Positions 4,041 through 58,536 of a DNA stretch of 64,000 bases are shown piece by piece (position 1 is the first letter of the stretch; every line of letters starts with the position of its first letter). The DNA is from an uncultured Candidatus Saccharibacteria bacterium (GTDB lineage: Bacteria; Patescibacteriota; Minisyncoccia; Phycocordibacterales; UBA12445). The position numbers were made by a program, and so were the translations under genes. The stretch spans positions 6,341 to 70,340 of the forward strand of contig CAZYTH010000006.1 of NCBI GenBank assembly GCA_964649715.1. The letters are read 5' to 3'. Under the pieces are notes generated by a model. It saw only the letters and a list, made by a program, of their open reading frames with translations, ran no database searches and was not told where the DNA came from.

Positions 4041-4817
4041 ATGTCCAAAATACAAAATACCCGCCCGCACCGAACAGAATATTCGGGCGAGGCAAAATAC
4101 AAAATAAGAGTTATATATGAAGACAAAGATATTTTGGTTATAGATAAGCCAAGCGGTTTGTCTGTTCACGGCGATGGCAAGAGCGATGTTTACACTCTCT
4201 CCGATTGGATATTGGAGAATTATCCAGGTATTAAAGATGTTGGAGAGCCGATGATATCATCAGAAGGAAAAAAGATTGTTCGACCAGGGATAGTTCATCG
4301 TTTAGATAAGGATACTAGTGGGGTTTTGATCGTGGCAAAAAAAGATGAATCTTTTAAGTTCCTGAAAAGGCAATTCAAAGAAAGAGAGATGGGAAAAATA
4401 TATTTAGCAATTGTTGAGGGTAGGTTCAAGGATGAGAGTGGCATTATTGATAAACCAATTGGTAGAAGTGAAAACGATTTTAGAGCAAAGACAACCGGGG
4501 CTTCGGCCAGAGGAGAAGTTAGAAGCGCTATTACTTATTATAAGGTTATTGAACAATGTAACGGTTATTCGTTTCTCGAAATAAGACCCAAGACAGGAAG
4601 GACACACCAGATAAGGGTTCACTTAAAATCTATAAGTAAGCCTATTGTTTGCGACCAAATATACGGTAAAAATAAAATTTGTCCTAAATGGTTGGGGCGC
4701 CTAGCTCTGCATGCGTTTTCTCTTGAAATAAGGGTGCCAGGAGGCGAGAGAAAGTTGTTTGTTTCGCCCCTGCCTGTGGATTTGAAAAGGGCTCTTGATA
4801 AAATAAGAAGTTTATGA
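4041..4817 (+). CDS. RluA-family 23S rRNA pseudouridine synthase (RluD-like)
   Basis: 'HRLDKDTSGVLIVAKK' catalytic-Asp motif, which is characteristic of the RluA family. 258 aa. Confidence 0.8.
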   Translation: MSKIQNTRPHRTEYSGEAKYKIRVIYEDKDILVIDKPSGLSVHGDGKSDVYTLSDWILENYPGIKDVGEPMISSEGKKIVRPGIVHRLDKDTSGVLIVAKKDESFKFLKRQFKEREMGKIYLAIVEGRFKDESGIIDKPIGRSENDFRAKTTGASARGEVRSAITYYKVIEQCNGYSFLEIRPKTGRTHQIRVHLKSISKPIVCDQIYGKNKICPKWLGRLALHAFSLEIRVPGGERKLFVSPLPVDLKRALDKIRSL

Positions 4818-31364: not shown

Positions 31365-31600
31365 GTAATTTCTCTTCGTCATTGCGATCCGCCTCTGGCG
31401 GAGAAGCCCGCCCGAACGACCTCTGTTCTGGTCGGGCGAGGCAATCCAGATTTAGTTTTATATTTCTGTCTGGATCGCCACGGTCGCTCTGCTCCCTCGC
31501 GATGACGATTACCATTAAAGTCTTTACATTTCCCCATCTTTTTTTGTTTTTGTCATTCCCGCGAAGGCGGGAATCCATGTAGTGGAATCTATGTATCTTG
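31365..31600. other. GC-rich, hairpin-dense non-coding island (candidate structured RNA or foreign DNA remnant)
   Basis: Local GC is far above the genome background. Hairpins include TTCCCGC-GAAG-GCGGGAA, ATCCAGA...TCTGGAT, and long-range pairing of TCGTCATTGCGA with TCGCGATGACGA. Both ORFs predicted here are low-complexity Arg-rich artefacts. Confidence 0.35.
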
Positions 31601-55714: not shown

Positions 55715-56125
55715 TTACCAACAAAGCCATCTTTGAGAAAGTATGGCGACTGGTTTATTGTGCCAACCCATTTCTTTTTCCATGTATTTGTTAAGCTGAG
55801 AAAGAGTTTTAAAGCATATAAGAACTTCGTTGCTCTGATACCAGACCCTCTTGGTTCCTTCATAAACAAGAGTTATCTGGTGCCTGTCATCTTTTGGGTC
55901 CAAAATTCCAATTACCATTTGTTGAGCACCATCAACATCGTGTTTTTGGAGTATTTCGACAAAAAGCTTGCTCATTGCCACACAATTACCTCTTCCTGTT
56001 TGTTTGAGCACTTCTAGTTTTGGTTGATTGCCGGAATATATCTGTCTATCCTTGTTCTTTCTCTTAAGTTTTTCTATTTCAGTAAGAAATTCTTTGGCCC
56101 ACAAAGGGAACTTTAATCTTGCCAA
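55715..56125 (-). CDS. Putative transglutaminase-like / papain-fold cysteine peptidase domain protein
   Basis: Spaced Cys-His-Asp candidates: 'GRGNCVAMSKLFVEIL...DDRHQITLVYEG'. 136 aa. Confidence 0.35.
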   Translation of the reverse strand: MARLKFPLWAKEFLTEIEKLKRKNKDRQIYSGNQPKLEVLKQTGRGNCVAMSKLFVEILQKHDVDGAQQMVIGILDPKDDRHQITLVYEGTKRVWYQSNEVLICFKTLSQLNKYMEKEMGWHNKPVAILSQRWLCW

Positions 56126-56528
56126 AGTACAATACCTCCTTTTTTATCATCTAATTACAATCGTAACTTATTTTTCCTAGAAGCTCAACGCCTACGAAAT
56201 GCGGAGTTATACTTCTAGGAAAATTAAAAATATGAGATAATAATCTTATATGAAATATTTTAATAAAGATTTTTGGAAATTTTCCGCGCAATTTGTGATA
56301 ATAATTGCGATATCTTTATTTCTTATGTCTATGATAAGTGGGTATATTGGGAGCGGAGGAGGGGAGGCAAGTTTGACCAGATAATTTTTTCTCAGTATCT
56401 CATCGCAAGGAAAAAGCTCCTTTTGGAGTACTCTTTTTATTCGCAGGGAGAAATTATTTTCCCCAACTCCCTTCTGTGTGAATCCTCTTCGCAAAAGAAA
56501 AACACCCGAAGGTGCTTTTCTTAATTGT

Positions 56529-56597
56529 TGCGGAGGCCGGATTCGCACCGGCGTCCCGAGGTTATGAGCCTCGTGAGGTACTGCTCCTCCACTCCGC
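56529..56597 (-). tRNA. tRNA-like gene with a CAT anticodon (Met/Ile2), non-canonical with a short acceptor/D region; possibly degenerate
   Basis: Reverse complement GCGGAGTGGAGGAGCAGTACCTCACGAGGCTCATAACCTCGGGACGCCGGTGCGAATCCGGCCTCCGC. The anticodon stem-loop CGAGG-CTCATAA-CCTCG and T-stem GCCGG/CCGGC are good. The T-loop TGCGAAT, the 6-bp acceptor and the total length of 69 nt are atypical. Confidence 0.4.
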
Positions 56598-56656
56598 TAT
56601 CTATATCTTAACAGTGAACCTTTTTAATGATGTTGTCAAATCATTACCGCTTTATA

Positions 56657-56790
56657 CGCGGTCGACCGGGATCGAACCGGCAACCTCTCGCGTGACAGGC
56701 GAGTGCTCCCCGCCCGAACGTACCGACGTTCGGTACGGGCGGGTAACCAGTTGAGCTCTCTCTTTTGAAGCTACAACCATGACCGCATTT
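56657..56790 (-). pseudogene. Disrupted tRNA-Asp copy carrying a 36-nt GC-rich hairpin insertion in the D-loop and a rearranged 5' end
   Basis: The 3' two-thirds are identical to tRNA-Asp 56849-56922, up to '...GAGTGCTC'. Then comes the inserted CCCGCCCGAACGTACCGACGTTCGGTACGGGCGGG (56708-56743), then 'TAACCAGTTGAGCTCTCTC...GAAGCTACAACCATGACCGC', which does not restore the acceptor stem. Confidence 0.45.
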
Positions 56791-56848
56791 TCAACTTTTC
56801 AAATACTCTTTAAGCGTGAACAACTTATTTTTTCAATGTATTTTCCTA

Positions 56849-56922
56849 CGCGGTCGACCGGGATCGAACCGGCAACCTCTCGCGTGACAGGCGAGTGCTC
56901 TAACCAGTTGAGCTACGACCGC
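56849..56922 (-). tRNA. tRNA-Asp (anticodon GTC)
   Basis: Reverse complement GCGGTCGTAGCTCAACTGGTTAGAGCACTCGCCTGTCACGCGAGAGGTTGCCGGTTCGATCCCGGTCGACCGCG. Canonical cloverleaf. Confidence 0.8.
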
Positions 56923-57148
56923 ATGCTTTTTTTATAAACCTCCCATCGGCACTCTTGAGATATATTTTTCTCTCACGAGCCTCCTTTCGGGTTTGGTATA
57001 TTTCTTTATATATAATTTTCAATTCATTCATTCGCGAAGTTGTTTTCGTCTTTCCGCGAACATGCTCACTGAAACGTCTCGCTAAATCATTGGTCTGGCC
57101 TTTATAAATTTTACCATTTTGATCTTGTAAGACGTATACAGCGTACAT
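56900..57148 (-). CDS. GIY-YIG domain endonuclease (small, homing-endonuclease-like) embedded in the tRNA-Asp locus
   Basis: 82 aa. 'MYAVYVLQDQNGKIYKGQTNDLARRFSEHVRG' contains the GIY...YIG...R...E catalytic motifs. The C-terminal 7 codons are read from tRNA-Asp 5' sequence. A duplicated tRNA 5' fragment 'AGCTACGACCGCA' plus upstream 'TTTTCAACTTTTCAAATA' recurs at 57153-57181. Confidence 0.6.
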   Translation of the reverse strand: MYAVYVLQDQNGKIYKGQTNDLARRFSEHVRGKTKTTSRMNELKIIYKEIYQTRKEARERKIYLKSADGRFIKKACGRSSTG

Positions 57149-57215
57149 ACTTTAGAGCTACGACCGCATTTTCAACTTTTCAAATATATCATATATATCT
57201 TTTTAGACAACTTTG

Positions 57216-57288
57216 TGTCGGGGGCGAGAATCGAACTCGCGACCGCAGCTTTATGAGTGCTGTGCTCTACCGACTGAGCTACCCCGAC
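57216..57288 (-). tRNA. tRNA with CAT anticodon (elongator Met or Ile-lysidine)
   Basis: Reverse complement GTCGGGGTAGCTCAGTCGGTAGAGCACAGCACTCATAAAGCTGCGGTCGCGAGTTCGATTCTCGCCCCCGACA. The paired G1-C72 argues against an initiator. Confidence 0.7.
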
Positions 57289-57432
57289 GTTTGTCAAATA
57301 AAAACATCCACGCTCGTCAGTATTTTGTACCATATGTTGTTATTTTTTTCAACACCAAGCAATCATCCTGTAAATTGGTTTGAAAAAAAAAGCTTAATAT
57401 ATTAGTATTTGGAAGTTGTTAAAAAAGTGAAA

Positions 57433-57505
57433 GCCGTTGTAGCTCAGTTGGTAGAGCACGTCATTGGTAATGACGAGGTCATCGGTTCAATCCCGATCAA
57501 CGGCT
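57433..57505 (+). tRNA. tRNA-Thr (anticodon GGT)
   Basis: GCCGTTGTAGCTCAGTTGGTAGAGCACGTCATTGGTAATGACGAGGTCATCGGTTCAATCCCGATCAACGGCT. Confidence 0.8.
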
Positions 57506-57516
57506 CATTGAATTTT

Positions 57517-57593
57517 GCCAGTGTAGCTCAGTTGGTAGAGCAATCGCATCGTAAGCGATGGGTCATCGGTTCAAGTCCGATCACTGGCTCCAT
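57517..57593 (+). tRNA. tRNA-Thr (anticodon CGT), CCA encoded
   Basis: GCCAGTGTAGCTCAGTTGGTAGAGCAATCGCATCGTAAGCGATGGGTCATCGGTTCAAGTCCGATCACTGGCTCCA. Confidence 0.8.
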
Positions 57594-57621
57594 TTATAAA
57601 GCTTTCTTGTGAAAGTTTTTT

Positions 57622-58536
57622 GTGTATAATTATAGAAATATGACTGAACAAGAAAATGCCGAAAAAATAAAGGCACTTGAAGAAGAGATGCAGAAATATG
57701 ATTTCTGGGAGAATAAAATGCGTGCCCAGGAGGTTTTGAAAGAGCTGTCTCGGCTCAAAGAAGAAGCTTTGGGTGCAAGAAAATATGATAAAGGGGATGC
57801 TATAATAACTATTTTTTCAGGTGCGGGTGGAGATGATGCCGAAGATTTTTCGTACATCCTCTATGAGATGTATTCAAAATATATATCAAAGAAGGGTTGG
57901 GGTATATATATATTGCACAAAAACGAGAATGACCATGGCGGTTATCGAAACATAACTTTCGAAATTACTGGTAGTGGATCCTATGGCACTCTCAAGAACG
58001 AGTCTGGGGTACATCGCCTTGTAAGAGTTTCTCCTTTTAATGCAAAAAAATTAAGGCACACTTCTTTTTCTATGGTTGAAGTTATCCCGAAATTTAAAAA
58101 AGGAGAGTCATTTGAGATACCTGAATCTGAGCTTCAGATTGAATTTTCGCGAGCTGGAGGTCCTGGTGGTCAAAATGTGAACAAGAGAGAGACGGCTGTA
58201 CGTGTTGTTCATATTCCTACAAATATTTCTGCCCATTCAGAAGCAGAACGATCTCAGGCGGATAATAGGGCGAAAGCCATAGATATTCTTCGCGGAAAGT
58301 TGTTTAAATATTTGGAAGAGGAGCGTATCAAAAAAGAGGAGGGTATGTATATAAGCAAGATAACATCAGCTGAGTGGGGGAGTCAAATAAGATCGTATGT
58401 ATTACATCCTTACAAAATGGTAAAAGACCACAGGACGGATGTTGAAACTAGCGATATTGAGGGTGTTTTGGATGGAGAATTAGATGAATTTATAGAAGCA
58501 GAAAGAAATCTTGAACCAAAAGGTAAGTTGGTTTAG
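57622..58536 (+). CDS. prfB: Peptide chain release factor 2 (short N-terminal domain, no programmed frameshift evident)
   Basis: 'HRLVRVSPFNA' SPF motif (RF2-specific) and 'GGPGGQNVNKRETAVRVVHIPT' GGQ motif. 304 aa. Begins immediately after tRNA-Thr. Confidence 0.85.
   Translation: MYNYRNMTEQENAEKIKALEEEMQKYDFWENKMRAQEVLKELSRLKEEALGARKYDKGDAIITIFSGAGGDDAEDFSYILYEMYSKYISKKGWGIYILHKNENDHGGYRNITFEITGSGSYGTLKNESGVHRLVRVSPFNAKKLRHTSFSMVEVIPKFKKGESFEIPESELQIEFSRAGGPGGQNVNKRETAVRVVHIPTNISAHSEAERSQADNRAKAIDILRGKLFKYLEEERIKKEEGMYISKITSAEWGSQIRSYVLHPYKMVKDHRTDVETSDIEGVLDGELDEFIEAERNLEPKGKLV

Follow-up and report, generated by a model that had tools for sequence, protein, structure and literature searches.

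A putatively selfish GIY-YIG module fused to tRNA genes of Patescibacteria, and a probably decayed copy at a Saccharibacteria tRNA-Asp locus

REP/RAYT elements, Rickettsia RPEs, Correia elements and the GC clusters of yeast mitochondria are all short palindromic mobile repeats. Genes of the T4 segB type are thought to spread by double-strand-break repair with co-conversion of the flanking tRNA sequence (PMC2330249). As for Slx1-like GIY-YIG proteins, eukaryotic Slx1 requires Slx4 and a RING domain, and a survey in 2006 found Slx1-like domains fused to tRNA methyltransferases (PMC1564403). GIY-YIG-encoding inserts are known from the rRNA genes of bacteria of the candidate phyla radiation (CPR, or Patescibacteria) and, like the insertion reported here, they are not intron-like (PMC11270868). 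In this study, we analyzed 64,000 nucleotides (nt) of DNA of an uncultured Candidatus Saccharibacteria bacterium (contig CAZYTH010000006.1, positions 6,341 to 70,340; hereafter the window), in which a small GIY-YIG open reading frame (ORF) runs into an intact tRNA-Asp gene and a second tRNA-Asp copy is broken by a palindrome. We propose, with a probability of roughly 0.6, that this tRNA-Asp locus was colonised by a tRNA-linked selfish GIY-YIG module common in Patescibacteria, and that the copy in the window is degenerate. The module consists of three parts, namely a gene for a predicted GIY-YIG nuclease of ~75 amino acids (aa) that runs straight into nt +1 of a tRNA gene, the intact tRNA, which stays a working gene, and, upstream and/or downstream, redundant copies or fragments of that tRNA, one or two in number, each with the D-arm broken by a palindrome. 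The proposal is carried by this architecture, its recurrence on about ten tRNA types, purifying selection on the nuclease gene, empty sites in relatives, and the mobility and conservation of the palindrome, all drawn from sequence comparison.

A word-indexed protein search returned 2 matches only, and it was an exhaustive search of representative proteins that revealed the family, with thousands of small GIY-YIG relatives, in many of which the annotated N- or C-terminus is extended by the translation of tRNA fragments and palindromes. By scanning genomes with an alignment of the closest relatives, we collected 80 loci (designated by L numbers) with 85 ORF copies, almost all in metagenome-assembled genomes (MAGs) of Patescibacteria; note that the loci were picked by similarity to the ORF, so that the statistics hold for this clade only. 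An intact tRNA on the same strand began 1-33 nt after the ORF match in 72 of the 85 copies, for which ~1 case is expected from the tRNA density, while 5 ORFs ran into a palindrome-broken tRNA and 2 lay at contig ends. The adjoining tRNAs are of about ten types (Asp, Ala, Val, Thr, Phe, Ile, Arg, His and Lys, with a Met copy nearby). Most of the ORFs have no stop codon of their own and end at a TAG of the tRNA, which is the universal U8-A9-G10 TAG (tRNA nt 8-10) in 43 of the 72 and a D-loop TAG in others. The ORF-tRNA overlap is a rule of the family and not an accident of the window locus. In the window, the ORF and the intact tRNA-Asp share 23 nt and the TAG stop is tRNA nt 21-23, tRNA nt 1-23 encoding the last 7 ORF codons (the CGRSSTG ending, GRSSTG region) and the stop; the junction had been correctly recognised in an earlier model-made reading of the window (the sequence-only reading). 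The module occurs in several copies per genome, with a patchy distribution. In the ORF tree, tRNA type and palindrome subtype showed local clustering only (a clade of Asp loci that includes the window, and one of Ala-CGC).

An exact copy of at least 9 nt of the tRNA 5′ end was found upstream of the ORF in 47 of 73 cases. Palindromes of one family lay within 130 nt upstream in 65 of the 85 ORF copies and downstream in 12, and 73 had at least one nearby. The upstream palindromes sit inside the duplicated tRNA 5′ fragment, often after just 9-22 nt of tRNA, and this pseudo-tRNA begins at nt 1, is always of the local tRNA type, and ends variably from nt 10 to nt 47. The position of the palindrome is partially related to the ORF stop, in that position 9 went with a stop at 8, and position 22 with stops at 8, 13 or 21. 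A minority of loci (L004, L032, L042, L051 and L053) share the order seen in the window, i.e., ORF, intact tRNA and a near-complete tRNA broken by the palindrome. In L032, the acceptor GGGTCCA of the upstream fragment is complementary to the 3′ acceptor of the broken copy further downstream, the intact tRNA-Val in between has another acceptor stem, and either side bears a repeat of the D-arm with the palindrome; the acceptor pairing implies that the ORF and the intact tRNA lie within one resident tRNA-Val. Tandem arrays of fragment, palindrome and ORF were detected in L019, L060 and L076.

The sequence-only reading was also right that the 5′ segment of tRNA-Asp and its upstream sequence are duplicated in the window. 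The 25-mer TATTTGAAAAGTTGAAAATGCGGTC is found without mismatch at both 57162-57186 and 56781-56805 (0 matches in 100 shuffles), a 34-nt repeat (57153-57186 and 56772-56805) is 88% identical, and the 18-nt leader TATTTGAAAAGTTGAAAA is present twice (57186-57169 and 56805-56788). Together with the 3′ 54 nt of the broken tRNA-Asp, which are 100% identical to the intact gene, this would fit a local tandem duplication of tRNA-Asp and random decay, the ORF and the hairpin being unrelated passengers. We regard such a history as highly improbable, as ~70 independent assemblies, the closed chromosome CP181398.1 among them, show this three-part architecture on about ten types of tRNA. Most of the sequences are of MAGs, but assembly artefacts are made unlikely by the recurrence over many studies and in a chromosome that is closed.

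The single close homologue in the databases (GIY-YIG proteins 70-72% identical) is L001/L002, a MAG contig with the same neighbourhood as the window (tRNA-Thr, tRNA-Thr, prfB and ftsEX; release factor 2, RF2, 78% identical); the exact window protein had no record in the contig index. L001 has the order of tRNA-Met, leader, tRNA-Asp nt 1-22, palindrome, GAGC plus a degenerate stretch, ATG, ORF and intact tRNA-Asp, and the ORF of L001/L002 also ends with CGRSSTG and a stop within tRNA-Asp. In a survey of empty sites at loci anchored on the neighbouring prfB (RF2) gene, the relatives L093, L119 and L127 carried plain Met-Asp arrays with 45-55-nt spacers, in line with the simple array that the sequence-only reading had thought of for related genomes. 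The Met-module-Asp arrangement was found in the window, L001/L002, L003, L005, L007, L009, L010, L035, L037, L046 and L049, and the order of tRNA-Met followed by tRNA-Asp is shared by L001 and many other loci, occupied and empty. The empty sites in the relatives imply that the ORF and the palindrome are insertions at a conserved tRNA array. In L099 (~620-1331), the slot between Met and Asp is filled by a LAGLIDADG-type ORF, which reads into tRNA-Asp (…KKCGRSSTG and stop) and has an anticodon-arm-like remnant upstream. Thus, the 5′ edge of tRNA-Asp hosts unrelated endonuclease families. Separately, L094 (751-1731) bears another GIY-YIG clade (34-35% identical), with copies directly 3′ of both tRNA-Met and tRNA-Asp, each of them preceded by one and the same pair of hairpins of other kinds, and the distant representatives P0020, P0058, P0066 and P0074 have N-terminal extensions resembling translated tRNA 3′ halves.

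The window protein matched the Pfam GIY-YIG domain (PF01541) over residues 1-64 with 48.6 bits (cut-off of 22.6; E = 1.1e-12), confirming the assignment of the 82-aa ORF to this superfamily in the sequence-only reading. It retains Y5 (VYV), Y15-K16-G17 and R25, which are invariant in 83-84 of the 85 relatives. The family pattern of Tyr, Tyr, Arg, His and Glu is that of UPF0213 proteins, which are also alike in size, and the closest solved relatives by sequence are UPF0213 EF2693 (1YWL) and BH0048 (1ZG2). An AlphaFold2 model of the window protein (mean predicted local distance difference test score of 82.8) has the order E-E-H-E-H, and Foldseek matched it to 1ZG2, 1YWL, Slx1 6SEH (template modelling score of 0.67, root mean square deviation of 2.4) and the N-terminal domain of UvrC, 1YD5. 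The protein is a single catalytic domain of ~75 aa, followed by a tail that is encoded by the tRNA and not conserved, and this single domain comprises no DNA-binding module as in I-TevI/Seg. SegB is a much larger protein with a DNA-binding part. Against NCBIfam, only TIGR01453 (group I intron endonuclease) was hit, below threshold (22.6 bits versus a cut-off of 56), and the search of the window protein against PHROGs gave no match. The homing-type insertion put forward in the sequence-only reading is borne out in outline, as the tRNA site was invaded, but the protein is a bare UPF0213/Slx1-like domain and not of the I-TevI/Seg type. The ratio of nonsynonymous to synonymous substitutions (dN/dS) of 0.05-0.15 between family pairs indicates that the GIY-YIG family is under purifying selection.

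The copy in the window departs from this family. The catalytic metal-binding Glu of the second helix, present in 83 of the 85 relatives and aligned with the conserved Glu of UPF0213 1YWL, is K61, the only Lys in this column among the 85 copies, so that of the conserved Arg and Glu of the core, the Arg (R25) is there but the endonuclease call partly fails for this copy. With Lys in place of the catalytic Glu, the protein of the window has probably lost its activity. A68D and a 1-aa deletion are further changes unique to the window, the dN/dS against L001 is 0.24, and the upstream tRNA-Asp fragment ends at nt 12 without a palindrome, the equivalent fragment of L001/L002 reaching nt 22 with the palindrome next. 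Based on the Lys, the deletion and the missing upstream palindrome, we consider the window module to be probably a fossil around a still-functional tRNA-Asp. It has lost the catalytic Glu and the upstream palindrome, and its palindrome-bearing copy has gained two small inserts.

The second, hairpin-bearing tRNA-Asp copy of the sequence-only reading is present, with slightly different bounds (Table 1): it ends at 56786, and the palindrome is of 35 nt, not 36, at the D-loop/D-stem junction. From the 5′ side, the copy reads tRNA nt 1-6, ATGGTT (56775-56780), nt 7-12, TCAAAAGAGAG (56758-56768), AGCT plus nt 13-22, the palindrome, and nt 23-74, so the acceptor 5′ strand is scrambled by inserts, as had been stated. 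The palindrome (RNA folding energy of -23.3 kcal/mol, z of -3.7) splits the gene between linear nt 22 and 23 (canonical A21/G22; here and below, a slash within a site marks the point of insertion). ARAGORN called a 75-nt tRNA at 56658-56732, which begins within the palindrome and has 3 of 7 acceptor pairs unpaired; this call is spurious. With the 3′ 54 nt intact and the hairpin a compact stable stem, the copy might be a functional tRNA-Asp with a non-canonical D-loop intron, the alternative offered by the sequence-only reading. However, the two further inserts wreck the 5′ strands of the acceptor and the D-stem; the Rfam score is below the tRNA threshold; at permissive thresholds (E ≤ 1), Rfam found only tRNAs in 56000-58000, no intron family and no palindrome family; and the intron mode of ARAGORN found no intron in the copy. 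Besides, the hairpin-bearing copy is truncated by the ORF in most relatives, and an intact copy adjoins the broken one in every locus of which the flanks permit the check. We thus rejected the intron, a reading that we find scarcely credible, and the data support a redundant, non-functional copy. The two small inserts resemble inserts at the same position in the broken tRNA-Met of L029 and L035. In these two loci (L029 2180-2340, L035 2180-2296), the broken tRNA-Met adjoins an intact tRNA-Met, has no GIY-YIG ORF of its own beside it, and carries the family palindrome together with other small palindromic inserts after GTAGC(T), which is the TCAAAAGAGAG position in the window.

By regular expression, 70 strict copies of the palindrome were found in the 80 loci, on various tRNA types and at various positions, the family being 32-40 bp in length. 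The outer arms CCCGCCCG/CGGGCGGG are invariant, a 4-nt element AACG (or CGTT) is conserved, the inner stem varies in a compensatory manner (ACTGA/TCAGT, 17; TACCG/CGGTA, 16; ACCGA/TCGGT, 8), and the palindrome carries interleaved inner repeats. It is inserted at NTA/GAGC (~60%), NTA/GCTC (~19%), GCTC/AG (~7%) or in anticodon loops, no target-site duplication being seen at the tRNA insertion sites. The two orientations occur at 42:27; the sister loci L064 and L071 have exact reverse complements at the same site, i.e., a flip in situ, and the identical 35-mer of the window recurs in opposite orientation in a tRNA-Lys fragment of L080. Nested palindromes (L021 and L048) and two palindromes per fragment (L012, L013, L020, L039, L047 and L061) were observed as well. 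Between the window and L001/L002, the palindrome is identical at 35 of 35 positions despite a synonymous divergence of ~1.0 in the adjacent ORF, which argues for active maintenance at these loci. Because the palindrome is conserved in sequence, accompanies the ORF clade in 73 of the 85 copies, is found in both orientations and occurs also outside tRNA genes, it is not random decay debris but a conserved, separately mobile element and the putative partner of the module. Of the decay suggested by the sequence-only reading, the loss of function of the redundant copy stands and the account of the hairpin does not.

Some palindromes lie apart from the module. A pattern scan of viral contigs gave ~5 credible family members (L164, L165/L170/L177 and L176), most of the matches being in DNA of 54-73% GC and looking like chance, and the palindromes of L164, L170 and L176 have no GIY-YIG gene or tRNA in up to ~14 kb. 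The one in L176 (12244-12279; IMGVR_UViG_3300035688_000448) matches the palindrome of L041, a Saccharibacteria locus, at 36 of 36 positions and is read in frame as part of a 531-aa transposase-like ORF on a contig of 56% GC, with a second palindrome adjoining and no GIY-YIG gene or tRNA at the locus. Two degenerate family members stand at non-tRNA sites of the window itself. One, CCCGCCCGCACCGAACAGAATATTCGGGCGAG (4060-4091), falls on the initial codons of the ORF for an RluD-like pseudouridine synthase (4041-4817) and is flanked on both sides by CAAAATACAAAATA; this 14-nt direct repeat falls in a CAAAATA tandem repeat. The other, CCCGCCCGAACGACCTCTGTTCTGGTCGGGCGAG (31407-31440), is located between genes for a PilC/GspF-like and a pilin-like protein, in intergenic DNA rich in hairpins, near the GC hairpin tcattcccgcgaaggcgggaatc (~31553-31580), and its ACC...GGT subtype is also seen in the viral contigs L165, L170 and L177.

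These copies, the nested and doubled palindromes, the tRNA-Met of L029 and L035 broken also by other kinds of small palindromes, and the occurrence of both orientations with flips in situ all favour the strongest rival explanation, in which the palindrome is an independent element similar to REP or miniature inverted-repeat transposable elements. Such an element would prefer TA/G(A/C)(G/T)C and hairpin loops and survive where it is harmless, i.e., in redundant tRNA copies; the GIY-YIG modules would merely create these copies, and the association with the palindrome would thus be indirect. We consider this unlikely. A hitchhiker would not be expected within 130 nt upstream of 65 of the 85 ORFs, often after the first 9-22 nt of a tRNA. 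The RF2-anchored Patescibacteria loci, ~410 kb unselected for the ORF, yielded no true copy, a lone match to the regular expression (L136) proving not to be a family member, and there was essentially none at non-tRNA sites in 386 kb of flanks. The maintenance of the 35-mer between the window and L001 also disfavours an independent element, which in addition would leave the mobilising enzyme without any other candidate. Overall, we lean slightly to the side that the palindrome depends on the nuclease.

As to how the preferred selfish module would work, we suppose that it spreads and persists by nuclease-made breaks at the DNA of tRNA genes, which would be repaired by copying the occupied allele, a homing-like gene conversion during which tRNA segments would be duplicated. 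Spread by break and repair fits L032 and the tandem arrays. The palindrome may be the partner of the module in cis, either as the cognate DNA site of the nuclease or as an insertion that shields the redundant copy against cleavage and keeps recombination from removing the ORF. Transcription of the ORF probably starts at the tRNA promoter, in which case processing by RNase P would remove its stop codon, and the shared tRNA nucleotides and the likely shared promoter would tie the ORF to an essential gene.

Several points weigh against the selfish module. The palindromes of viral contigs and of non-tRNA sites in the window, and the broken tRNA-Met of L029 and L035, stand without an ORF of the family, and the census is limited to one clade because of the manner in which the loci were chosen. 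It is not evident how a bare domain of 75 aa would recognise a long homing site. The candidate targets are the TA/G site of the D-arm and the palindrome. With the D-arm as target, the intact tRNA adjoining the ORF should be cut too, and with the palindrome as target, the module's own palindrome should be cut; neither version accounts for self-immunity. Simple homing also leaves unexplained the precise joining of the ORF to nt +1 of many tRNAs with a fragment of the same type upstream. We rejected a simple Campbell-type model and a simple homing model, each taken alone, as they give part of the architecture only, and neither gives self-immunity or the switching of tRNA type.

A bolder possibility, which we hold to be improbable, is that an Slx1-like structure-specific nuclease and the palindrome make up a new mobile system acting on folded DNA, either the extruded palindrome or the cloverleaf of a tRNA gene. 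The nuclease would cut at stem-loop junctions and copy itself together with a replacement tRNA; in a less likely variant, it would be directed by a co-transcribed pseudo-tRNA or hairpin RNA. If this is true, it would account for long tRNA duplications and the turnover of tRNA genes across Patescibacteria, and provide the first function for the 20-year-old UPF0213 family.

Lastly, the module may act at the RNA level, with the GIY-YIG protein as a tRNA-directed enzyme or toxin, the pseudo-tRNA and hairpin as its regulator, decoy or guide, and the intact tRNA as its substrate or antidote. A promoter-like site of tRNA type precedes the ORF, fragment and tRNA, which share a strand; the pseudo-fragment matches the local tRNA type throughout; and in prokaryotes, Slx1-like GIY-YIG domains are known as fusions with the tRNA Gm18 methyltransferase TrmH and as neighbours of COG4123 methyltransferases (PMC1564403). 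All of this agrees with the idea. Nevertheless, the palindrome is found either way round relative to the ORF and is reversed between sister loci, which would change the bulge and loop of the RNA and argues against a strand-specific RNA role. The variable ends of the pseudo-fragment, the patchy distribution (relatives with empty sites, genomes with several copies), and the single marginal match in PADLOC (PDC-S14, E = 0.0034, with no stretch passing alone) are further disadvantages, and we rate an RNA-level module as quite improbable.

The features of the locus are listed in Table 1. A 29-nt spacer separates the upstream tRNA-Met from the first leader copy, and a 7-nt linker, CTAAAGT, joins the orphan duplicate to the ATG of the ORF. 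The promoter-like site is weak, with 1.6 such sites expected by chance in the region. The intact tRNA-Asp is presumably a working gene. A non-coding block beyond the module is conserved between the window (56420-56525) and L001 (6490-6640) and ends in a terminator-like hairpin, CACCCGAAGGTG, with a T-run. In L001, this block and a tRNA-Met truncated at the anticodon are inverted relative to the Asp module, implying a rearrangement with a breakpoint inside the tRNA-Met gene.

Table 1. Features of the tRNA-Asp locus in the window (positions of the window; the locus spans 56500-57320 and is read on the minus strand)
Feature	Position	Strand	Basis
tRNA-Met(CAT), upstream neighbour of the module	57216..57288	-	Rfam tRNA 69.0 bits; ARAGORN
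Promoter-like site TTGTCT-16-TATATT with TG, directly 5′ of the tRNA-Asp leader	57183..57210	-	Consensus scan 9/12
Orphan duplicate: 18-nt leader (57169-57186), one T, tRNA-Asp nt 1-12 (57156-57167)	57156..57186	-	
82-aa stand-alone GIY-YIG (UPF0213/Slx1-like) ORF	56900..57148	-	Pfam; family alignments; PDB sequence matches; AlphaFold2 model
Intact tRNA-Asp(GTC)	56849..56922	-	Rfam 69.8 bits; clean ARAGORN cloverleaf
AT-rich 43-nt spacer, intact tRNA-Asp to second leader	56806..56848	-	
Second copy of the 18-nt leader	56788..56805	-	
Disrupted tRNA-Asp copy	56657..56786	-	Rfam 26.8 bits, below the tRNA threshold of 29
GC-rich 35-bp palindrome of the CCCGCCCG...CGGGCGGG family, at TA/GAGC (D-loop/D-stem junction)	56709..56743		
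tRNA-Met(CAT), 1:72 mismatch (initiator-like), downstream boundary of the locus	56528..56598	-	Rfam 53 bits; ARAGORN

The annotation of such loci is affected in two ways. Gene callers extended the ORF through the tRNA fragment and palindrome in P0002 (L001 6001-6345; 114 aa against the real ~83), and ARAGORN called false tRNAs that begin inside palindromes not only in the window but also in L032, L042 and L053. Over-extended ORFs and false tRNAs are a systematic annotation artefact in CPR MAGs, and the module bears on the annotation of tRNAs and pseudogenes in MAGs as well as on the search for compact nucleases with defined DNA sites. It represents a way for a selfish gene to bind itself to an essential one, through the first nucleotides of a tRNA, its TAG and probably its promoter. 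As it also duplicates and disables tRNA copies, it bears on the evolution of tRNA gene sets in streamlined genomes.

None of the systems compared below brings together an ORF fused to the 5′ end of a tRNA, the duplication of a tRNA fragment and a conserved palindrome in the D-arm, and our literature search yielded no description of a GIY-YIG/tRNA/palindrome module in CPR bacteria; the family, widespread on the tRNA genes of the ultra-small CPR/Patescibacteria, is apparently undescribed. The REP/RAYT-type repeats resemble the palindrome in being GC-rich, with invariant arms, a compensating inner stem and dispersed copies, some of them in frame in genes, and there, too, a small nuclease gene is characteristically flanked by palindrome copies. 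The nuclease here is, however, a GIY-YIG domain and not an HUH/Y1 transposase, and the copies are concentrated in the D-arms of Patescibacteria tRNAs. Integrative elements that target tRNA genes likewise insert between direct repeats of a tRNA part, with the intact tRNA at one junction and a fragment at the other, but the module duplicates the 5′ instead of the 3′ part of the tRNA, lacks an integrase, and has an insert of only ~250 bp. The insertions with homing endonucleases in CPR rRNA genes concern the same radiation and likewise invade genes for stable RNAs, but they lie within rRNA genes and are mostly of LAGLIDADG type in group I introns, and no tRNA-linked GIY-YIG or palindrome is described there (PMC11270868). 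T4 segB shares with the module a GIY-YIG gene among tRNA genes, of which presence or absence varies between related genomes (PMC2330249). In contrast, T4 has no ORF-tRNA overlap, duplicated tRNA fragment or partner palindrome, and the cleavage by SegB has been demonstrated, whereas that by the Patescibacteria nuclease is predicted. The UPF0213/Slx1-like proteins (1YWL and 1ZG2; Slx1 6SEH) are the best matches in sequence and fold and agree in size and in the Tyr/Tyr/Arg/His/Glu pattern, but the fusion to a tRNA and the palindrome are peculiar to the present clade; the literature searched described neither a function nor a genomic rule for UPF0213. Stand-alone UPF0213/Slx1-like GIY-YIG proteins are very common in bacteria without an assigned role, and this clade gives them a testable context, namely a fixed tRNA junction and a conserved candidate DNA site.

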